Assembly (NCBI GenBank): GCA_038064855.1
Contig: JBBTSE010000002.1
Coordinates: forward strand, 8,530 to 72,529
From: Patescibacteria group bacterium
GTDB taxonomy: Bacteria; Patescibacteriota; Minisyncoccia; Ryanbacterales; GWA2-47-10b
Length of the DNA stretch: 64,000 bases
Reading direction: 5' to 3'
Position numbers and translations under genes: made by a program. Below the pieces are notes generated by a model, which saw only the letters and a program-made list of their open reading frames with translations, was not told where the DNA came from and ran no database searches. Of this stretch, positions 4,978-53,582 are shown piece after piece. Each line of letters begins with the position of its first letter. Position 1 is the first letter of the stretch.

Positions 4978-7900
4978 CTACAGAACGTCCGTGGCCCTGC
5001 GGACACGTCGAGCGCCCTTTGCAAGTATGCGCGACACGGCCTCTACCCTGGCGCGGGAGTCGCTCGCGGTGGGTGCCCGGTAGTTGACGCGCACTTTGTA
5101 GCCGCGAACGGTCGCTGGTGTACCGGCTTCCGCCTCCTCGGTGTCGAGATGCACTATCAGCCCTTCCGGCGAGCAGACGGTGACGCGGGCTAGGCTCTCT
5201 GACGCAAGCGACGACTGGACTGCTCGTGAAAGGTCACGCAGCGCCGACTTCTCTCGCGCGACGGCGATCACTCGGTCGAAGCCGGCGGCAAGGCACTTCT
5301 GGATGTTCGCAAGCTCATGCTCGGGGTTGGTCGAGATTGAGATCTCGCAGGCGATGCGCTTTCCGTCACGCGAGAGCGCTACGTCGACTCGGCCCGCGCC
5401 ATCGAGGACGTCTTTCTCGATGGTCGCCTTCCAGCCGCGGTCCTCGGCAAGTCGCTTGATGAGGTGTTGGAGGTACTTGTGTTCGGCTCCGCCTCTGCCG
5501 GACGCCGGTGCGGCGGGTGACGTCGTCGCTGCAGGCGGACGTCGCGATGGCGGCGGTGTTGCCCTTGGCGGTAGGCAAGAGGTTGCAGGGACGGGGTGCT
5601 CCGCCACTACTGGCTCCATAGCCGCGATCGGGGTGTCGATCGTCGTTGGCCGCGGCTGCTCAACGTCGGTAGCCGCACGTTTGACTCCGAGCCCCGGCTC
5701 GACCGCTTCTCGCGGCCTCGCGTAGCTCTCGCGCGAAAGCCGGACAATCTCGTCCACCCGGGACCGAGCCTCGGAGGGATCGACCGCCTCGATCGGGAAC
5801 GTTCGCAAGTTGAAGTCCTGGTCACTGCGCTCAAGCCGGCAAATCGCCTCGCCCACGGCGAGGGACTGGAGATCGTTGGCATCGAACGAAGAGAATCCGT
5901 GCGCAAGCAGCCGCGCGTCCTGATCGCCGACGCGAAAGCAGATCCGGGTGGCGGGGTTGGTGAGCACAGCACTCGAAAGCCGTCCGTCCTGGTCTTGGAG
6001 TTGCCGCGTGTCTTGGTGCGCGAGCACCAGACCGAGATGGTACTTGCGAGCTTCGGCAAGGAGAGCGGCTACCGACGGGGTGGCAAAGTTCTGGAACTCG
6101 TCGATATAGAGGTGGAAGTCGGGCCGCTCGCTCTCGGCGAGCTGCTGGCGCGAGAGCGCAGCCTGATGGAATTTGGAGACAAGAAGCGCACCCAAGAGGT
6201 GCGCGTTTTCGTGTCCGATGATGCCCTGCGAGAGCTTGGCGAGGAAGATCTTCCGGCTGTCCATGAGTGACCGGAGGTCGAGCGTGCCTCGGCGCTGACC
6301 GACCATGAGCCGGATGAGCTTCGGGCGCAGGAACGCATCGAGTCGCGTCAAGATCGAGGCCGACGGATTGCCTTTGAGGAGCGGGTACTCCTTTTCGAAG
6401 TAGTAGACGACCTCCGCGTCCCGGACGCTCGCAAGGAACTCCTTCCGGAATGCCGGATCGACGAGGAACTTCCGGAGATCGAGGAGCGACCCGCCGGCGT
6501 CACTCTCGAGGAACGCGAGGATCGCGTTCCCCAAGATGGACGTCATCTGGTCCCCCCAGGATGTCGCGAATCTCCGGAAGATCGCGACGAGATCAGAGGA
6601 CAAAAGGTTCTTCTCGACCTCGGAGTGCGCTTCGAGCACGTTGAACCCGACCGGGTACTCCTCATCGGACGGATCGAGGATCGCAACGTCCGAGAACCGT
6701 TTCTCGGGAATCCGAGCAAGCACTTCGTCGATGAGGTCTCCGTGCGGGTCGAGCACCCCGACGCCGTCGCCGTTCTCGATGTCCTGCAGGATCATCCGGA
6801 GGAGCAGCGTGGATTTTCCGGTCCCTGATGCCCCGACCACGTAGGTGTGGCGCATCCGGAGATCAGGATCGATCGTGACCGTCCTGGTCTTCCCGCGATG
6901 CGTGTTCTCGCCAAGGACAACGCCCTTCCGCGAAGCTCCGGCCGCCGCTCTCGTGGTCCGTGCTTCCCGAGCGAGGCTCTCGGAGCGCACGGACACCGAC
7001 GGAAGGTGGACGAGCGAGACGACTTCATCACTCGAAAGGAGCATGCCTGACCGGTGCGTGCGCCGAGCGAGGAGATCTTCCTCGTGAAGGTCGTCCGGAT
7101 AGTCGTCGTTGGAAAGCGGGATCAGCTCATTGCCGCCGGGGTTCGCAAACTGCCCAAGGCTTCCGCCGAGCGTCCTGACCAATGACCATGCGCGTTCACG
7201 ATCGGGGCAGCGTGCGGCGACACGCACCACAGCAGCGAAGAAAGGATGCGCGATTTTCTCGGCTGCCTGCGATAAAATCTCGGGAGCGTCGGCAAAGAAG
7301 CTATCCCCATCACCATCCGTGACCGCGCGAAGAACGCTCGGCGCCCACGGGTTGCGTGTCGCCTGCGAGAGCACCTGTACGAGACCGACCTCATTGTCGC
7401 GAAGGTCCCCGAGTGCTGCCACCACCGAGATCAGAGGATCGACGTCGAAGTCCTTGGCAATCTTGAGCGGGAGCATGAACTCACGCGACAGCCCGAAGTC
7501 GACCACGAGGCCGTGCCCGTCATCCGCGCAGCTCCAGAGATCGCGAAGCGACTCGGTCGCTGGAACGATGCCCGTCTCGGGGAAGTAGGCACCGAGCGCA
7601 CGCCGGATATCCGCGGAGTCGGACGCACGACACGCGAGCGTGACTCGCACCTCGCCCGATCGGCCAGTTAGCTCGAAGGAGACCGGGTGCTCGACCGGCG
7701 AGAGCGCCAACAGAAACCGCTCGGCGCGCTCCTTGGTGACCTTCAGATCGCCGGGCAGCGTGATCGTGTGCTCGACGATCTCATCACCGAGCCGATCTTC
7801 GAGGGGAAGCGGTTCGTCATCGACCTCGCTTTGGAGGTGCCCGGCCTCGTTCGCCCGAGCGCTCGACCCGCGAAGGCGCTCCACCCAGCGGCTCAAGCGC

Positions 7901-19238: not shown

Positions 19239-20456
19239 TCAAGCGATGTCGCGAGGTGCCAGCGTCTCCGCGCTGAATGGGTGCGTCTGGATGCCGAGGG
19301 TCATGAGCTTCAGGTAGATCTCGTGGTTCGGCAGGTAGACGAGATCGCCCTCCGAGATCTCGGGGTAGAACTCGCGCGCGACGATCTCGGCATCGGCCAA
19401 GCCGATCCGAAACGAGATGATCGTGCCGACGTTGCCGATGATCGCGTCGCGGATCTCCGGTGCCAACTGCGAGAGGTACTGGTGCGCGAGCACCAACCCC
19501 ACGCGGTACTTGCGGAGCTCCGAGAGCATGTTCGCGAGCGAGAGGGTCGTGAAGTTCTGGAACTCGTCGAGGTAGACCCAGAAGTGTCGCCGCTCGGTCT
19601 CCGGGATCTCCGCTCGGCCGAAGGCGGCGTTGCCGATCGACGAGACAAGTAGCGATCCCAAGAGGTTCGCGGTGTCCTCGCCGATCTTCCCCTTGGCGAG
19701 GTTGACCAGCAGGATCTTGCCCTCGTCCATGACGCGCCGAAGATCGAGGCCTTCTCCCTTGCCGTTCAAGATCCCGTAGAGGAGGGGGTTGGCAAGGAAC
19801 GCCCCCACCTTGTTTTGGATTGGTGCGATCGCCTCGGCGCGAAACCGATCCGGATACCCCGGAAATTCCCGCAGCCAGAAGGACCGGACCTGCGGGTTCT
19901 CGACTCGTTGTCCGACGCCTCGCCGGTAGTCGTCGTCCGAGAGCAGGCGAAGGACATCCGCGAGCACCGGCTTCTCCTGGTCGAGAAGCGCCAAGAGCGC
20001 ATTCCGCAGGATGTGCTCGAGGCGCGGTCCCCAGGAGTCAGCCCACAGCTTTCGGAACACCTCGAGCATCGCGGAGGCGGCAAGTGACCTCTTCTCGAAG
20101 GGAACCCCGCCGAGCGGGTTGAAGGAGAGGGTCCGCGATCGGTCAGGCACGTCGAAGTAGATGACATCGCCCTTGCGCTCGTCGGGGACCGCGCCGAGCA
20201 CGCGCTCGACCAGATCTCCGTGGGGATCGACCAGGGCGAAGCCGTAGCCTGCACGAAGATCATCCCGCATCAAGGTTTCAAGGAGCGTCGACTTTCCGGT
20301 TCCCGTCTTGCCAAGCATATATATATGGAAGAGCCGATCGGTGGTCCGAATCCCGAAGGGCCTGTGTTCTGTGCGAAAGTTCGTCCGGGCGAAGACGGCA
20401 AGGTGGTTCTGGGTGTGGTGCATCCTCACCCATGATCGAGCCCATCGCTCCAGCAC
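19239..20456 (-). CDS. TraD/TrwB-like P-loop ATPase (short paralog of the 4978-8067 product, ATPase core only)
   Basis: Walker A MLGKTGTGKSTLLETL, DPHGDL, Walker B VYLDEFQNF, LVLAHQ. About 40% identity with the giant ATPase is apparent by eye. Confidence 0.8.
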   Translation of the reverse strand: MLERWARSWVRMHHTQNHLAVFARTNFRTEHRPFGIRTTDRLFHIYMLGKTGTGKSTLLETLMRDDLRAGYGFALVDPHGDLVERVLGAVPDERKGDVIYFDVPDRSRTLSFNPLGGVPFEKRSLAASAMLEVFRKLWADSWGPRLEHILRNALLALLDQEKPVLADVLRLLSDDDYRRGVGQRVENPQVRSFWLREFPGYPDRFRAEAIAPIQNKVGAFLANPLLYGILNGKGEGLDLRRVMDEGKILLVNLAKGKIGEDTANLLGSLLVSSIGNAAFGRAEIPETERRHFWVYLDEFQNFTTLSLANMLSELRKYRVGLVLAHQYLSQLAPEIRDAIIGNVGTIISFRIGLADAEIVAREFYPEISEGDLVYLPNHEIYLKLMTLGIQTHPFSAETLAPRDIA

Positions 20457-22593: not shown

Positions 22594-23115
22594 CCTCCCG
22601 CATGGCGGGGGAGGTTGCCACGAAGGGAACACCACCCCTCTTGGTTCCTGATCGAGCCAGGGTCATACTTGGGCAGCATCACGCGGCGATGCTGCGGCCA
22701 TCGTGTGCTTGAGTGTCGGTGAGTTCTCGTATCTTCGCGAGCGTCGCAAGAGCGGAGGCATCAGCGCTCAGGGCAAGGGTTCGAACGTCCTCTACGTAGG
22801 TCCACATCTCAATAAAGAATCGAACTCCGGACTGCTGGGGGCAGTCCGCGGGCGAGCTGTGGGAGCGAGCAAGATTCTCCCCAGGTCCACCACTTCGCTT
22901 CGGTGTTATGATAATTGTATAGAATCGAAAAAAAATAAAGTTAATCGTCTTGTCTATCGAAGTTAAATTGTGACCATTAAAATAGCTTAGTTTATATGAT
23001 TCCCCTCTTAAATATGGCATTTCACGTGAAATATTGGACATTTCTGTGTATATCTATTGGACATTGTGGATAAAGGACATTAAAATCATGTCTTTTATGT
23101 CCTTTTGCCTTATGT

Positions 23116-23660: not shown

Positions 23661-23734
23661 CGGAGTGTAGTATACCGGTAGTACGTCTGCTTTGGGAGCA
23701 GATAGACTGGGTTCGATTCCCAGCACTCCGACAA
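23661..23734 (+). tRNA. tRNA-Pro (anticodon TGG)
   Basis: Acceptor CGGAGTG/CACTCCG, anticodon arm TCTGC-TTTGGGA-GCAGA, T-arm CTGGG-TTCGATT-CCCAG, discriminator A. CCA is not encoded. Confidence 0.7.
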
Positions 23735-23988
23735 TTCATAATAAAAGGGAATCGAAGGGAAGTCTGGGAGACTTCCCCAGCTCCGCACTAAGCGAAGCGC
23801 AGAAGGAGGATTCCCAGCCCGCCCAGGGCGAGGCAGGCACTCCGACAGTCTCTATGGGGCTTGCAAATAAGTTGTTTTTGTGATATAGTTTTTTCGACAC
23901 TTTAGGCCCTTGAGAACTGAATAATATAGGATTAACGCATTCAGAGAGAATCTCGGATGCTTACAGAGAAGAGAAAAGGAAGGAGAGA

Positions 23989-25596: not shown

Positions 25597-27861
25597 ATGA
25601 AGAAGGGAATACTTTCCGTATTCTTTTCTCTTGCATTGGTATTTTTCCCAGTACTCGCACACGCAGAAGATATTAGTGAAAATAATCTTCCGCAGTGGTT
25701 TGGGCTCTCATCTACCTCTGTAGGGGTAGGAGATCCAGTGGAGTTCACAATTGGCGTAAATGATTTGGATGGCGATCCTCTCACTGTTACGACCGAACTT
25801 CCTGATGGTGCATCGTACGACTTGCCGACGGGTATCTTTTCATGGACGCCAAGCGCGGCTGGTATTTACACTGCTAACTTTTCAGCGAATGACGGTCATG
25901 GTGTAGGCTCACATCTTGTAACAATCGAAGTTAATGCAGTAAACAACCTTCCTGTTTGGTCAGGTCCTCGTAGTGCAACGACAACCGTCGGCACTCTCAT
26001 CAATTATGTAATTGGCGTGAATGATCTCGATGGTGACGCGTTGACTATTACGACGACATTGCCTGATGGCGCGTCGTACGATCAATCAACGGGCGTCTTT
26101 TCATGGACACCTACTGCAATTGGTATGTACACTGCGCGCTTCTCAGCTTCAGATGGAAAAGGTGTCGGGGAGCATACACTTACTGTTGAGGTGGTTGAAA
26201 GCTTAAATCATCTCCCTGTTTGGTCAGGTCCTCGTAGTGCAACGACAACTGTCGGCACTCTCATCAATTATACATTTGGTGTGAATGATCTTGACGGCGA
26301 TCCACTTACACTCGAAATCATGCGTCCCGCAGGCGCCACCTATGCCACAAGCACGGGGGCGTTTATCTGGACACCGACAACTCAAGGGCTCTTCGTTGCC
26401 ACATTCATCGCTTCTGATGGTGTTGGTAGCGCAACGCATACATTTACTATTGAGGTCAATGAAGTAACGAGTGGCAATCGCCCTCCGTACTTTGTAAATT
26501 TCAATCCCGGTATTTTTGCGACAGCACTTGAGAAATACGAATATGACGCGAATGCCGAAGATCCCGATGGGGATACTTTGAGCTATTTGCTTACAAAGCG
26601 CCATGTTGGTATGGTGATTGCCACATCAACAGGTGTTATCACATGGACTCCAGAAATAGCACAGGTATCGTCAACGCCATATGACGTTATCGTCGCGGTT
26701 ACAGATGGTACCTATACGGTCACTGAAGATTTTAAAATCACAGTTACCCAAAACCATCTTCCTGTTTGGTCAGGTCCTCGTAGTGCAACGACAACCATAG
26801 ATACTCTGGTCATGTTCACCATCGGAGTAAATGATCTCGATGGCGATCCGCTCAAGCTTTCACTTGTGCGGCCCGTAGGATCAGTATATGCCACGAGCAC
26901 AGGCGTCTTTATGTGGACGCCAACCATGATCGGTACCACTGATGTTTTATTCAGTGCGTACGATGGCACGGGTACATCAACACACAAAACTACTATTGAA
27001 GTAGTAAGTGGCAATCACCCGCCCATCTGGTCAGGTCCTCGTAGTGCAACGACAACCGTCGGCACTCTCATCAATTATACATTTGGTGTGAATGATCTTG
27101 ACGGCGATCCACTTACACTCGAAATCATGCGTCCAGCAGGCGCCACCTATGCCACAAGCACAGGGGTGTTCTCATGGACGCCGGGTGCAACTGGCACTTT
27201 TATCGCAAAGTTCACTGCAAGCGATGATAAATTTGCTACCAGCACCCACACATTTACTATCGAAGTGAATCCCAAGCCAGTAGATCCTCCACCACCACCC
27301 CCACCGCCACCCGGCGGAGGGGGAGGCGGAGGCGGTGGAGGAGGCGGAGGCAATGGGCCTCCATGCCTCATCAATAATAGTTGTAACACTCCACCAGCAC
27401 CCGCACTTCCACCCCCACCTGCACCGAGTACTCCCGTAAATAATCCAGTTCCTTCACAACCAAACCCCAGCCCACGACCCGTGCAGCCAACGCCAGCCAT
27501 ACGGCCGGCACCTGCACCAGATCTTGCTCTCGTATCAAACCTGATTGCGACGACGACGCCCGCTGAAGGCCCGTCGCTTGCGTCTGTATTACTTGCGGGA
27601 TTATTCAACTTCTTAGGTTGGCTCCGCTCAAATTGGTGCATCCTTGGTTGGTTGCTCTGGCTTCTCACGCTTCTCGCGTTTATCCTCTATGTGATCTTTA
27701 CGAACACAGACGAAGATGACGAGGAAGTAAAAGAGTCAACGCCACCTAACGGATTGCCAATCATGCCGTTCGATGATGAATCGAATGAGCCGATAAAAGA
27801 AGCTGTATCGGAGAATACGCTCAGCGAATACTGGGAAACAACTCCACAAGAGAATAAGTAA
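25597..27861 (+). CDS. Surface protein with 7 cadherin-like/putative-Ig (He_PIG-type) repeats, poly-Pro/poly-Gly tract and C-terminal membrane anchor
   Basis: Signal MKKGILSVFFSLALVFFPVLAHA. Repeated unit LPVWSGPRSATTTVGTLINY..GVNDLDGDPLT...TG.FSWTP...G.Y.A.F.ASDG. PPPPPPPPPGGGGGGGGGGGGG, then a C-terminal hydrophobic anchor and an acidic tail. Confidence 0.75.
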   Translation: MKKGILSVFFSLALVFFPVLAHAEDISENNLPQWFGLSSTSVGVGDPVEFTIGVNDLDGDPLTVTTELPDGASYDLPTGIFSWTPSAAGIYTANFSANDGHGVGSHLVTIEVNAVNNLPVWSGPRSATTTVGTLINYVIGVNDLDGDALTITTTLPDGASYDQSTGVFSWTPTAIGMYTARFSASDGKGVGEHTLTVEVVESLNHLPVWSGPRSATTTVGTLINYTFGVNDLDGDPLTLEIMRPAGATYATSTGAFIWTPTTQGLFVATFIASDGVGSATHTFTIEVNEVTSGNRPPYFVNFNPGIFATALEKYEYDANAEDPDGDTLSYLLTKRHVGMVIATSTGVITWTPEIAQVSSTPYDVIVAVTDGTYTVTEDFKITVTQNHLPVWSGPRSATTTIDTLVMFTIGVNDLDGDPLKLSLVRPVGSVYATSTGVFMWTPTMIGTTDVLFSAYDGTGTSTHKTTIEVVSGNHPPIWSGPRSATTTVGTLINYTFGVNDLDGDPLTLEIMRPAGATYATSTGVFSWTPGATGTFIAKFTASDDKFATSTHTFTIEVNPKPVDPPPPPPPPPGGGGGGGGGGGGGNGPPCLINNSCNTPPAPALPPPPAPSTPVNNPVPSQPNPSPRPVQPTPAIRPAPAPDLALVSNLIATTTPAEGPSLASVLLAGLFNFLGWLRSNWCILGWLLWLLTLLAFILYVIFTNTDEDDEEVKESTPPNGLPIMPFDDESNEPIKEAVSENTLSEYWETTPQENK

Positions 27862-28276: not shown

Positions 28277-28336
28277 AGAAGCATCAAGGGTGATAGGTTC
28301 CCCAGGTACTCTTGGCTATAAAACTTAAAAAAACAA

Positions 28337-28367
28337 AAAAGCGCCGCAAGGCGCTTTTTTGTTTTAT
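28337..28367 (+). terminator. Rho-independent terminator
   Basis: aaaaaagcgccgcaaggcgcttttttgtttt. Confidence 0.7.
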
Positions 28368-28505
28368 GTGCGGTCGGCGGGAGTCGCTTTGCCTCCACAG
28401 CAAAGCCACGGATTTTTGCTCGAACCAGTGGCGCAAAAATCCGGTTCGACCCCCTTTCATCCAAAACAAATAAAAATAACCCCGCACTACGTGGGGTTAT
28501 TTTTA
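28368..28505. repeat. 135-bp direct repeat copy 1 (begins with a reverse-complemented tRNA 3'-end-like GTGCGGTCGGCGGGAGTCG; contains three hairpins)
   Basis: About 95% identical to 30055-30190. Hairpins: GCTTTGC...GCAAAGC, GGATTTTTGC...GCAAAAATCC, CCCCGC...GTGGGG + T run. Confidence 0.75.
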
Positions 28506-28517
28506 TATGCAAATTTA

Positions 28518-30011
28518 TTAATCCAAATGAGGTGGGAAAAGGGTCGCGCAATCAGGATTTTTACTTGCTTCCGATAAGTATGTACGAATAGTAGACAATC
28601 CATAAGTCGCATCATTCCACAGTTTTGGATAATCATAATTGACTGCCTGACATATGTCGCGCGCACTTTTATTTGATGTTGTCTGCTCAGGGTATTTCAT
28701 AAAAATGAATGCTACTTTGAAGTCCTTAACAAATTCCTTCCCATTGTCGTGAGAGTTTAAAATACGACTTCCATCTCCCGTATAGTAAATCCTATTACTA
28801 AACTGAGGATTATTATAAGGATTATATTGAGGATCTTTCATGCAGGCTGTTAGTTGTTTTAGCATTGTTTTGAAGTTGTCTAAAGTGATATTTTTGCGGA
28901 CGCCGTAAAATGTATCCCCTTCAGAGCCTTTCCTTTCAAGGTCATAGGCAATAAACATATCTTTAGTTGCAAGTTCTTCTTCAGTCATCAAACCCATCGC
29001 GTAGAGGTCAATATAATTAAATCTAGGGGTGGTGTTCGTTATGCCTTCCATGCCAGTAGTGGTGAATGTACCGTCCTTATTGTCTATGATTCTGCTGAGA
29101 CGAGGTTGAAGGTATGTGCCATTTTTAGCTTGCAATGCCCCTCCAACTATTACGCTCAGCGGGCCAGCCTCAAAATTTGATGACCAATGTCCCGATGGAA
29201 AGTCGTACACATATGAGGCCCACGAATCAAAGCATTGAGGTGCCCCCTGAACACCCCAGCCGACCCCCCAGTAATGCCCGAGTTCATGAACAAATACATA
29301 GCCGGAAAGAGTGGTATCATCCCACATTTTAAATTGTTGTATATATCTTAGGCGTGTAGGGTATCCGCTACAGTTCATATTCTCTACCGTAGAGCACTCG
29401 TTAATCTGCCCAATATTCGAAGGTACATAGCGTCTCATAAAACCATTGCTCCACCCATTGTATTTGTTATTTTGTTTGCCAACATCAAATGTTACCAACA
29501 TATCAAATTCATCAGGATATATTTCATAGAATTTTTGAACCACTGCATTCATAGACATGACACCATTTTCGTATCGACTCGGATCATTTTCTGGAACTTC
29601 TAAGATTAAAACATTTGGTATGGGTTTTGTTAGGGTTTGCGGTGGCGGGAGAAGTTTTTTGACGGTAGGAGGTAGAGGTTGAGCGACAGGAGGCATGACC
29701 ACGACCGGTGTCGGTATTGGTTGTTGAGGCGGCGTCGACTTCTGTGGGAGCTGTCTTTGCTCAGGTTTTTTCTCTAAGATTTTTGTATTCGTTGTTTCCT
29801 GTTGGTCTTCTTTTTTAATCACAGAAGAGTTTTCGGTAGTATCTACTACCTTTTGGTTTTCCAGCTCTTCGGATGTTTTGGTTGGTATGGTTGCGCGCTC
29901 CTTGTCTTCAGAAGTTTCTAATTCATAAAAATAAACTCCGCCTCCAACAGCTATGACACTAACAATTACAAGCAAAAAAACCACTGGTGCGAATCCTGTT
30001 CGATGATTCAT
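28518..30011 (-). CDS. Membrane-anchored secreted zinc metalloprotease (HExxH)
   Basis: N-terminal transmembrane segment FAPVVFLLVIVSVIAVGGGVYFY. Pro-rich linker, then a catalytic domain with VFVHELGHYWGVGWG. Confidence 0.7.
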   Translation of the reverse strand: MNHRTGFAPVVFLLVIVSVIAVGGGVYFYELETSEDKERATIPTKTSEELENQKVVDTTENSSVIKKEDQQETTNTKILEKKPEQRQLPQKSTPPQQPIPTPVVVMPPVAQPLPPTVKKLLPPPQTLTKPIPNVLILEVPENDPSRYENGVMSMNAVVQKFYEIYPDEFDMLVTFDVGKQNNKYNGWSNGFMRRYVPSNIGQINECSTVENMNCSGYPTRLRYIQQFKMWDDTTLSGYVFVHELGHYWGVGWGVQGAPQCFDSWASYVYDFPSGHWSSNFEAGPLSVIVGGALQAKNGTYLQPRLSRIIDNKDGTFTTTGMEGITNTTPRFNYIDLYAMGLMTEEELATKDMFIAYDLERKGSEGDTFYGVRKNITLDNFKTMLKQLTACMKDPQYNPYNNPQFSNRIYYTGDGSRILNSHDNGKEFVKDFKVAFIFMKYPEQTTSNKSARDICQAVNYDYPKLWNDATYGLSTIRTYLSEASKNPDCATLFPPHLD

Positions 30012-30054
30012 ACCCTCATACTATCTTTGTTATTAGAGATGTACAATTAGTTCC

Positions 30055-30190
30055 TTGTGCGGTCGGCGGGAGTCCCTTTGCTTCCACAGCAAAGCCACGG
30101 ATTTTTGCTCGAACCAGTGGCGCAAAAATCCGGTTCGACCCCCTTTCATCCAAAACAAATAAAAATAACCCCGCATAGCGCGGAGTCATT
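30055..30190. repeat. 135-bp direct repeat copy 2
   Basis: Matches 28368-28505. A third, truncated copy (30195-30216) continues into a tRNA 3'-half-like sequence. Confidence 0.75.
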
Positions 30191-30296
30191 TTTACTTGTG
30201 CGGTCGGCGGGAGTCGAACCCGCGTCTGCTGCTTGTCCCGCAAAATACAGAGCGCAGCGACAATATTTTGTGAGGATCCCGTGACAAGGGTGATTC

Positions 30297-30370
30297 TGGT
30301 GCGAGCGGCGAGAATCGAACTCGCGCCCTCTGCTTGGAAGGCAGACGTTCTACCATTAAACTACGCTCGC
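30297..30370 (-). tRNA. tRNA-Gly (anticodon TCC)
   Basis: The reverse complement GCGAGCGTAGTTTAATGGTAGAACGTCTGCCTTCCAAGCAGAGGGCGCGAGTTCGATTCTCGCCGCTCGCACCA forms a canonical cloverleaf. CCA is encoded. Confidence 0.85.
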
Positions 30371-30549
30371 GTTTTTATATGGATTGACGCTCTGTATAAC
30401 GGGATCTTCGCAGAACATAGTCGTTTCACTCCTTGTTCTGCGGGAGAAGGCAGCCATAATAGCCGTTATACGACGACCGCTTTTTAAAAATGCCGCTTTC
30501 ATCCCCTTCCGGAGAAGGGTTTACAGCGGCATCGGTATCGTAGCATACG

Positions 30550-52925: not shown

Positions 52926-53582
52926 ATGGAAAGAAAAATCGTGTTTTCTGTCGGCGAGTACTATCATGTGTATAATCGTGGCGTGGAAAAACGAAGAATT
53001 TTTCTCGACAGAAATGACAAAGAACGCTTTCTTCGCCTGCTCTATATAGCAAACAGCGATATACCCGTTGTCTTTCGCCTTAGCCAAAAGAAACCGCTTG
53101 CCGATATTCCTGTCGGCAAAAAAGCAGTAGCAATCGGTGCTTATACGCTGATGCCCAATCATATACATTTACTTATCAAAGAGGTTGTAGACGGTGGATT
53201 GTCTTTGTTTATGGAAAAACTGATGACAGCGTATGCCAAGTATTTCAACAAGAAATATGATCGCGTCGGATCTCTGTTCCAAAGTAGATTTAAGGCCGAG
53301 CATATTGATCGGGATGAATATCTAAAGTATATATATGCCTATATACATCTGAATCCCATAAAACTCATTGAGCCAACCTGGAAGGAAAAGGGTATTGGTG
53401 ATATGAAGCGTGCAAAAAAATTTCTGGATACATATCGATATTCAAGCTATCAAGACTACGCTGGTCTACATCGGCCGGAGAAGATTATCCTTGCGCCAAA
53501 GGGATTTCCCGCGTATTTCGAAGACAGATATGCCTTTGCCGACGCGCATCAAGATTGGTTAGATTTCAAACCAACCACCTAA
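52926..53582 (+). CDS. REP-associated tyrosine transposase (IS200/IS605-like Y1 HUH transposase, RAYT)
   Basis: HUH motif PNHIHLLI and catalytic Tyr region YIYAYIHLNP. REP-like hairpins at 52880-52902 and 53578-53600 flank the gene. Confidence 0.75.
   Translation: MERKIVFSVGEYYHVYNRGVEKRRIFLDRNDKERFLRLLYIANSDIPVVFRLSQKKPLADIPVGKKAVAIGAYTLMPNHIHLLIKEVVDGGLSLFMEKLMTAYAKYFNKKYDRVGSLFQSRFKAEHIDRDEYLKYIYAYIHLNPIKLIEPTWKEKGIGDMKRAKKFLDTYRYSSYQDYAGLHRPEKIILAPKGFPAYFEDRYAFADAHQDWLDFKPTT

Follow-up and report, generated by a model that had tools for sequence, protein, structure and literature searches.

A repeat-flanked gene downstream of a split tRNA-Gly

We analyzed a 64,000-nucleotide (nt) stretch of a Patescibacteria group genome (contig JBBTSE010000002.1), referred to here as the window, and focused on a pair of direct repeats that flank a gene for a protein with an HExxH motif and lie downstream of a transfer RNA (tRNA) gene, tRNA-Gly(UCC). 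The repeats, at 28358-28505 and 30047-30194, align without gaps at 92% identity across 148 nt, and their inner part at 98.3% across 120 nt, in good agreement with the approximately 95% given in a preliminary description of this DNA. Between them lies an open reading frame (ORF; 28518-30011, minus strand). Its ATG is located 45 nt from the end of the tail copy contained in the upstream repeat (S2, defined below), and its stop codon 12 nt from the start of the downstream repeat unit (unit 1). The repeats, the ORF and the tRNA gene all read most naturally on the minus strand. An identical order of repeats and ORF is found in a European Nucleotide Archive contig from Hainich groundwater, and in a 1656-nt Logan unitig from 3 samples the ORF has fragments of the units on either end.

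The window has precisely three copies of an 18-mer contained in both repeats, GTGCGGTCGGCGGGAGTC (28368, 30057 and 30198; 0.17 occurrences expected, with 0 of 100 shuffles giving three). The copy at 30198 runs on into a T-arm that adjoins tRNA-Gly(UCC) at 30297-30370, confirming a third, partial repeat copy that had been described as continuing into a tRNA-like 3′ half beside this tRNA gene. We compared the locus by BLAST with 80 related loci, fetched via the neighboring RNase Y gene, and found that the "tRNA-like" sequence belongs to a genuine tRNA-Gly(UCC), whose 3′ half it forms and which we term tRNA-Gly #1. The connection of the repeats with a tRNA 3′ end had thus been recognized correctly, and the split nature of the tRNA-Gly had been missed. 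In locus L003 (RNase Y 94% identical) and in L005, the segments corresponding to 30480->30446 and 30235->30198 are contiguous and form a normal 73-nt tRNA-Gly(UCC). The metagenome contigs L093, L105 and L107 likewise encode an uninterrupted tRNA-Gly(UCC), and in these three and in L003 it is 100% identical to the joined halves of the window. In the window, the 5′ half (nt 1-35, GCGGTCGTCGTATAACGGCTATTATGGCTGCCTTC; 30446-30480, minus strand) and the 3′ half (nt 36-73; 30198-30235, minus strand) are separated by a 210-nt insert (30236-30445, minus strand; boundaries taken from the intact relatives), which interrupts the tRNA between nt 35 and 36, in the anticodon loop. The last 18-19 nt of tRNA-Gly #1 (30198-30216, minus strand) constitute the first of the three tail copies, S1.

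These relatives also provide the protease-less empty site that the preliminary description had proposed to look for: L003, L093, L105 and L107, with their identical tRNA, lack the repeat units, the insert and the protease gene, and L005 lacks the units and the protease gene as well. The pairs of occupied and empty sites (L031 versus L033, and the window versus L003) have flanks too diverged to define precise insertion boundaries.

A tRNA 3′ half followed by a G-rich sequence could also belong to a two-piece (permuted) transfer-messenger RNA (tmRNA), with the 3′ half serving as acceptor piece and the coding piece having its 5′ end at the unit start, GGGGGTCGAACCGGAUU. ARAGORN calls a permuted tmRNA here at a relaxed threshold, and the Rfam model tmRNA_permuted scores 20 bits in an alignment to T-arm, acceptor and GGGGUCGAACCGGAUU; set against a gathering score of 47, however, the matches reach only 20.4 bits (RF00023) and 20.0 bits (RF04321), and ARAGORN with default settings calls none. 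We found no plausible tag ORF: ARAGORN returns "tag not identified", and the proposed tag lies inside the protease ORF. Moreover, the supposed 3′ domain is nt 36-73 of a normal tRNA-Gly(UCC), which L003, L093, L105 and L107 carry undivided, and the G-rich start pairs with the copy of the T-loop and T-stem rather than with the acceptor strand, as it does behind other tRNAs. We rejected a tmRNA, permuted or otherwise, once the tRNA halves had been matched to intact tRNAs, and we consider its probability negligible.

Architecture of the two Gly units

The locus contains two repeat units. Unit 2 (30054-30197, minus strand) directly follows tRNA-Gly #1. It starts with AAG and a terminator-like hairpin (30198->30156), continues with the 5′ strand of a closing helix, P1 (GGGGGTC, antisense to the T-loop and T-stem; 30143->30137), and two hairpins, P2 and P3, and ends in tail copy S2 (30074->30057) followed by a second AAG. 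Unit 1 (28366-28505, minus strand) has the same series of elements: a terminator-like hairpin (28509->28466), the P1 5′ strand (28454->28448), P2 and P3, and a 19-nt tail copy, S3 (28386->28368). Directly 3′ of S3 stands a strong intrinsic-terminator-like hairpin (28330-28365, minus strand), probably the one by which the tRNA locus was originally terminated. S1 is thus followed by the hairpin of a unit, and S3 by a separate strong terminator.

Both Gly units are predicted to fold stably (-59 and -60 kcal/mol; z = -4.6 and -4.7). In the minimum free energy and centroid structures of both, the terminator-like hairpin precedes a three-way junction of two hairpins, one of 11 bp and one of 6-7 bp, closed by P1, in which GGGGGUC pairs with GACUCCC in the tail copy. 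The three stable hairpins described earlier for each copy correspond to one terminator-like hairpin and two hairpins within a closed junction. Each unit contains two segments that correspond to its tRNA: tRNA nt 53-63 are matched in reverse complement by the 5′ strand, GGGGGTCGAAC, including one G·U pair, and the 3′ end (S) is a sense copy of the last 18-19 nt. The identity of the direct repeats to the tRNA starts at nt 56/57, in the T-loop.

Related units lie behind tRNA genes in Patescibacteria

The direct repeats are tandem members of a family of structured elements that flank tRNA genes in Patescibacteria (Parcubacteria/Paceibacteria). At nine related loci, a tRNA gene is followed 74-430 nt downstream, on the same strand, by a copy of its own 3′ end (18 nt, ≤2 mismatches); the tRNAs concerned are Gly-UCC, Gly-GCC, Arg-UCG and Ala-CGC. 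In a stricter test allowing ≤1 mismatch, 12 of 97 tRNAs showed such a tail copy, against a calculated chance expectation of ~0.007. In total, we identified ~20 units of equivalent architecture behind tRNAs, bearing out the suggestion in the preliminary description that the unit may belong to a family. They share a layout in which a segment antisense to the T-loop and T-stem is followed by at least two hairpins and then by the sense tail copy, and a terminator-like hairpin is a frequent start. In five loci (L023, L029, L031, L047 and L055) the antisense segment reaches the acceptor strand, sometimes interrupted by an extra hairpin. Tail copies stop at the discriminator base, or at CCA if the gene encodes CCA. 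We also considered reverse transcription primed by mature tRNA as the source of the tail copies, and rejected it: the copies lack CCA where the gene lacks it, and they share the genomic flank AAG.

Two further units lie in the window itself. An Ala-type unit (22814-22893, plus strand), ending in GATTCTCCCCAGGTCCACCA, resembles the unit behind tRNA-Ala in L011; it has no intact tRNA-Ala upstream and is preceded by a tRNA-Ala remnant. A Pro-type unit (23745-23852, plus strand) lies behind tRNA-Pro(UGG) at 23661-23732 and contains GGGAATCGAAGG, antisense to the T-loop and T-stem; its tail copy is interrupted by a 19-nt hairpin, GATTCCCAGC|CCGCCCAGGGCGAGGCAGG|CACTCCGAC. The Gly, Ala and Pro units of the window all lie just downstream of a tRNA, share its strand and end in a ~18-nt tail copy. 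Both Gly units also have the closing helix of antisense segment and tail around two hairpins, and this layout recurs in the A2/A4 consensus.

A covariance model built from four units (R1) detected additional units behind Gly, Pro and Arg tRNAs as well as the Ala-type unit of the window, and aligned the two Gly units of the window at full length, with 16.2 bits for unit 1 and a weak 13.9 bits for unit 2. The Gly units represent a different subtype from the GGAG-type units described below, nearest to the Ala units and to those of L023 and L049, with which they share TCGAAC(T)CCGGA...TCCG(Y)GG. Related cores are found behind different tRNAs within single loci and genomes. L037 contains three units whose cores are ~85% identical and whose P1 and S ends match Gly-UCC, Gly-GCC and Arg tRNAs, respectively, and in L047 homologous cores lie behind four tRNA types in one genome. 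Units also form tandem arrays (L055 13281-13707, L061 11261-11622 and L029 12890-13170). The L055 and L061 arrays contain 100-N runs, probably scaffold gaps at collapsed repeats, so the true array copy numbers may be higher. In L116 (~5466-5495) and in the same region of L085, a 25-nt mini hairpin, AAAGGAGGTGAGCGACTCCCGCCGA, stands between a tRNA-Gly(GCC), whose 3′ end equals that of the window tRNA, and a tRNA-Leu directly after it; the hairpin includes a 13-nt partial tail copy and may be a vestigial unit.

Close sequence copies of the window repeats are a separate matter. A search for further copies of the 135-bp unit, as the preliminary description had proposed, gave no other close sequence copies in the window, and a 46-nt core of the repeat has no extra copy in its 64 kb. 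A metagenome scan with the tail 18-mer returned 49 loci with one copy each, the majority of them chance matches in GC-rich genomes. No relevant Rfam match emerged, whether at gathering scores or with a cutoff of E ≤ 10, for the window as a whole, for the locus or the Ala region within it, or for the units of a relative. In the searchable literature we found no description of the unit family, the searches returning only a report on group I introns (PMC13011429), and the family is apparently undescribed.

Compensatory changes maintain the unit structure

In an alignment of the GGAG-type subtype, 22 of 28 base pairs show compensatory changes and 91% of cells are paired. None of 500 shuffles reached the observed values, and slid controls paired only 39-49%. 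In addition, 19 of 21 units fold better on the tRNA-sense strand (p = 0.0014). The structure of the units is under selection.

These data bear on one account of the repeats, a plain, functionless local duplication of the tRNA trailer in which structure and tail copy are left over from the duplication and decay of tRNA genes (pseudo-tRNAs). Such an origin would explain why the tRNA segments of a unit stand in tRNA order (acceptor 5′, T-stem 5′, T-loop 3′, T-stem 3′, acceptor 3′) and why some arrays finish in truncated units. It would not be expected to keep non-tRNA hairpins paired across genera by compensatory changes, to conserve internal loops, or to leave tail copies 100% identical while the cores have diverged by 15%, and units lie behind ~12-20% of the sampled tRNAs in genomes assumed to be strongly reduced. 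We consider decayed duplications quite unlikely as the explanation.

A second account views the repeats as scars of site-specific integration: integrase-less elements, of the kind of cis-mobilizable elements (CIMEs) or integrative and mobilizable elements (IMEs), would have inserted in tandem at the 3′ end of tRNA-Gly under a tyrosine integrase acting in trans. S1-S3 would then be attL, a middle att site and attR, the unit body X an attP arm, and the first hairpin an element-supplied terminator for the rebuilt tRNA. The segment from T-loop to 3′ end, which the direct repeats span and which includes the three exact 18-nt copies, is reportedly the classic att sublocation of integrases. The empty sites in L003, L005, L093, L105 and L107, the hairpin after S1 with its counterpart in the separate strong terminator after S3, the occurrence of tandem arrays, and, elsewhere in the window, a GC-rich segment resembling an integrative and conjugative element (ICE) and bordering on a tRNA-Ala remnant all agree with such scars. 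The elements would nevertheless be only 120-260 bp long, and an antisense tail copy that closes a covarying multi-hairpin junction is not a feature of att arms. The ORFs annotated in 23-64 kb of the window include no tyrosine or serine recombinase, the sole candidate being a Y1/IS200-like gene (52926-53582), and a dyad partner for a core-type binding site is usually missing to the left of S. Finally, targeting the four tRNA types of L047 would call for multiple integrase specificities from one very small genome. Integrase att scars thus fit the data in part, and we regard them as an unlikely origin of the units, albeit one to be taken seriously.

The cargo gene encodes an uncharacterized surface protein

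On the minus strand, the locus has the order S1-AAG-X-S2-AAG-cargo-X-S3-ATA, followed by the terminator. The cargo segment (28506-30053, minus strand) is 1548 nt long and begins 3 nt past S2. It consists of a weak promoter-like site (TTGTAC-17-TAGTAT, 30046->30018, recognized by eye and not called by a promoter scan), an ORF of 497 amino acids (30011->28518), and 12 nt past the stop codon. From the translated sequence, the protein has an N-terminal transmembrane segment; in the structure model this is followed by a low-confidence linker (residues 1-128 in all) and then by the HExxH domain. The HExxH motif (H242-E243-x-x-H246) is invariant in 11 homologs, and the protein shares ~55 invariant positions, including four cysteines, with homologs P0002-P0011, several of which carry SLH domains. 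We found no match in Pfam, NCBIfam, PDB sequences or Foldseek, so that "metalloprotease", the earlier designation, holds at the level of the invariant motif and has no counterpart in a family or fold. As judged from sequence, the protein belongs to an uncharacterized surface-protein family of candidate-phyla (CPR) bacteria. The gene's neighbors in the window encode an acylphosphatase, HU, RNase Y, the phosphoglycerate mutase iPGM and an immunoglobulin (Ig)-domain protein.

The preliminary description had interpreted the repeats as boundaries of a tRNA-targeted cassette that delivers a secreted protease. The tRNA flank is indeed an insertion site, as the empty relatives show. Cargo, however, accompanies only one of the ~20 units, at the locus analyzed here, and homologs of the protease in other CPR bacteria lie in unrelated contexts, the contigs of P0002 and P0003 containing neither unit nor tRNA. 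With cargo-less units on one side and unit-less homologs on the other, the units are neither a protease-delivery device nor dedicated cassette boundaries. It had also been argued beforehand that a known Rfam family present at many loci without cargo would identify the repeats as something other than cassette ends; the many cargo-less loci exist, and the family corresponds to no known Rfam entry.

The same anatomy invites comparison with integrons. In an integron-like or guide-directed cassette system, the units would resemble attC sites, the tRNA tail would serve as attI, the antisense segment would direct insertion to the site beside the matching tRNA, and circles of gene plus unit would be mobilized. 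The units are imperfect palindromes of 90-150 nt whose structure is conserved rather than their sequence, the structure is strand-specific, a core site recurs at every junction, and the order S-AAG-X-S-AAG-cargo-X-S fits the insertion of a circle; arrays occur as well. The near-absence of cargo (1 of ~20 units) is difficult to reconcile with such a system, as are protease homologs without units. RYYYAAC/GTTRRRY boxes are missing: the units end in GGGGGTCGAAC... and ...GACTCCCGCCGACCGCAC, and the T-loop sequence GTTCGAC is unlike GTTRRRY. The fold is a three-way junction rather than a single bulged hairpin, no intI-like gene adjoins any of the anchoring tRNAs, and the neighbors of the locus include no recombinase. 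We judge an integron-like system to be very unlikely.

An insert with a complete second tRNA-Gly splits the first

The 210-nt insert in tRNA-Gly #1 contains tRNA-Gly(UCC) #2 (30297-30370, minus strand; called by ARAGORN, 76.5 bits with Rfam). Its ends form imperfect terminal inverted repeats of 17 nt, and its arms of 75 nt and 61 nt pair into a long rod that extends the anticodon stem and bears the complete tRNA-Gly(UCC) #2 at its tip (-112.9 kcal/mol, z = -6.2). Apart from tRNA, no Rfam family matches the insert, and RF00028 (group I introns) gives no match at E ≤ 10. A group I intron was rejected on this basis and on its boundaries, C|U...A|C, with no U before the 5′ site and no terminal G; a tRNA with an intron, as modeled by ARAGORN -i, was rejected because only spurious models were returned. 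The insert may represent a tRNA intron of a new kind; alternatively, it may be mobile and supply a replacement for the tRNA that it disrupts.

Other features of the window

Positions 1-22800 of the window have a GC content of ~62%, versus ~48% for the remainder. Genes in this GC-rich segment include one for a TrwB/TraG-like type IV coupling protein (19239-20456, minus strand) and one for a NUDIX protein. At the boundary (~22780-22810), a tRNA-like remnant, GGGTTCGAACGTCCTCTACGTAGGTCCAC, adjoins the Ala-type unit. Two explanations are considered for the GC-rich 1-22.8 kb: integration of an ICE-like island at a tRNA-Ala, or a chimeric assembly.

The Y1/IS200-like (RAYT-like) gene at 52926-53582 (plus strand) encodes 218 amino acids, lies within a type IV pilus gene cluster and has copies of a hairpin, GTACAAAGGCTGCCTTTGTAC, on both sides. 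A homolog adjoins the protease homolog P0002 in L083. We considered the Y1/RAYT transposase as a mobilizer of the units and rejected it, as the hairpins flanking this gene are its own and unrelated, and the occurrence of units does not follow that of its homologs. Elsewhere, a low-complexity block of CCACC / GGAGG at 27277-27480 forms a 27-nt inverted repeat; it lies in the C-terminal part of a gene for a 754-amino-acid Ig/cadherin-like protein (25597-27861).

Discussion

The unit family of Patescibacteria has ends specific to the preceding tRNA, a conserved fold and tandem arrays, and is absent from relatives that carry an identical tRNA. On balance, we lean toward a reading of the locus that combines this tRNA-flank family with the gain of a gene by recombination between units and with a role of the units as trailer RNAs that mimic their tRNA. 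To produce the observed order, a circle or segment [S-AAG-cargo-X] would have recombined with a resident unit, by crossover in S or anywhere along the ~140-nt X-S homology. The anatomy of the junctions fits such a recombination: their flanks are AAG and ATA, as predicted, and the cargo begins 3 nt past S2. On this view, units located behind tRNA genes would be portable anchors for recombination, with the protease-like gene as incidental cargo.

The RNA part of this reading is its weakest step. The units are probably made as a tRNA 3′-trailer or read-through RNA that would imitate, in its fold, the acceptor/T-arm helix of the tRNA to which it belongs. This RNA may be a substrate of the machinery that processes tRNA ends, or a competitor for it.

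Several observations weigh against the combination of unit family, recombination and RNA mimicry. Each core lies behind a terminator-like hairpin, so unit expression would require read-through, and both the covariation and the strand asymmetry are also compatible with hairpins of single-stranded DNA. The Gly units show the same architecture as the covarying GGAG-type units and little of their conserved sequence: they lack the CGGAG/CGAG internal loop and the GGUCGC/GUGACC helix, and their R1 scores of 16.2 and 13.9 bits correspond to E ~1-4. With such weak scores and missing motifs, homology of the Gly units with the GGAG-type is unproven, and it is by position and architecture, and not by sequence, that they are counted as members of the family. 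Neither viral contigs nor the metagenome scan yielded a close copy of a window unit outside this genome, and no recombinase was found near the locus. The arrays of L055, L061 and L029 finish in 3′-truncated units, which the model does not explain, nor does it account for the perfect fit of the antisense segment to each tRNA.

The units might be a new kind of self-targeting mobile or recombination elements in which the antisense segment, as a guide, selects the matching tRNA 3′ end and genes are captured in an attC-like manner by a putative recombinase. Insertion would duplicate the 18-20-nt tail, and the units would subsequently anchor the capture or exchange of genes such as that for the protease. 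We hold this to be rather improbable; if true, it would represent a tRNA-anchored, structure-based cassette system in Patescibacteria.

Should the family be upheld, a sizeable share of the tRNA genes in a major uncultured radiation would carry a folded appendix that copies the gene's own tail together with its complement. The appendix might represent a novel type of RNA that mimics tRNA, of relevance to the processing of tRNA or to decoy roles in genomes for which a minimal RNase repertoire is expected. It might also be a new recombination anchor, which would explain the gain of genes behind tRNAs without a nearby integrase. The split tRNA-Gly with its nested replacement tRNA is a second unusual disruption of a tRNA gene, at the same 35/36 site that is used by group I introns of Patescibacteria.

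Among known systems, CIME-type att repeats share with the units a repeat that consists of the tRNA 3′ part, tandem copies, a variable downstream region, empty sites and one case of cargo. The units differ from them in being ~120-260 bp long and encoding nothing, in an antisense tail that closes a covarying junction, and in having homologous cores behind several tRNAs per genome, with no integrase found. Integron attC sites are likewise imperfect palindromes (~60-150 nt) with a conserved structure, located after a gene, with a core at each junction and strand-specific. Unlike attC sites, the units are branched and almost all empty, have no R/L boxes and no intI/attI/Pc platform, and are anchored by an 18-20-nt tRNA tail, compared with the 7-nt core of attC.

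As mimics of the acceptor and T-arm, the units resemble tRNA-like RNAs such as the tRNA-like domain of tmRNA, the Y RNA YrlA and viral tRNA-like structures, and those of L023, L029, L031, L047 and L055 possess the full acceptor and T-stem helix up to the discriminator or CCA. The window units lack the acceptor 5′ strand and match no Rfam family. In contrast to the tRNA-like RNAs, the mimic in a unit is an exact copy of the 3′ end of the neighboring tRNA, with a two-hairpin insertion in place of the T-loop.

Group I introns in Patescibacteria genes for tRNA-Asn and tRNA-Asp occupy position 35/36 (PMC13011429). The insert in tRNA-Gly #1 likewise lies at 35/36 in the anticodon loop, and its ends likewise pair as a helix at the junction; it differs in its flanks (C|U...A|C), in having no group I match and in a non-tRNA part of only 136 nt. 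It also lacks the bulge-helix-bulge geometry of archaeal split or intron-bearing tRNAs. From all of these disrupted tRNAs, whether interrupted by group I introns or of the archaeal kinds, the insert in the window is set apart by the complete second tRNA that it holds.

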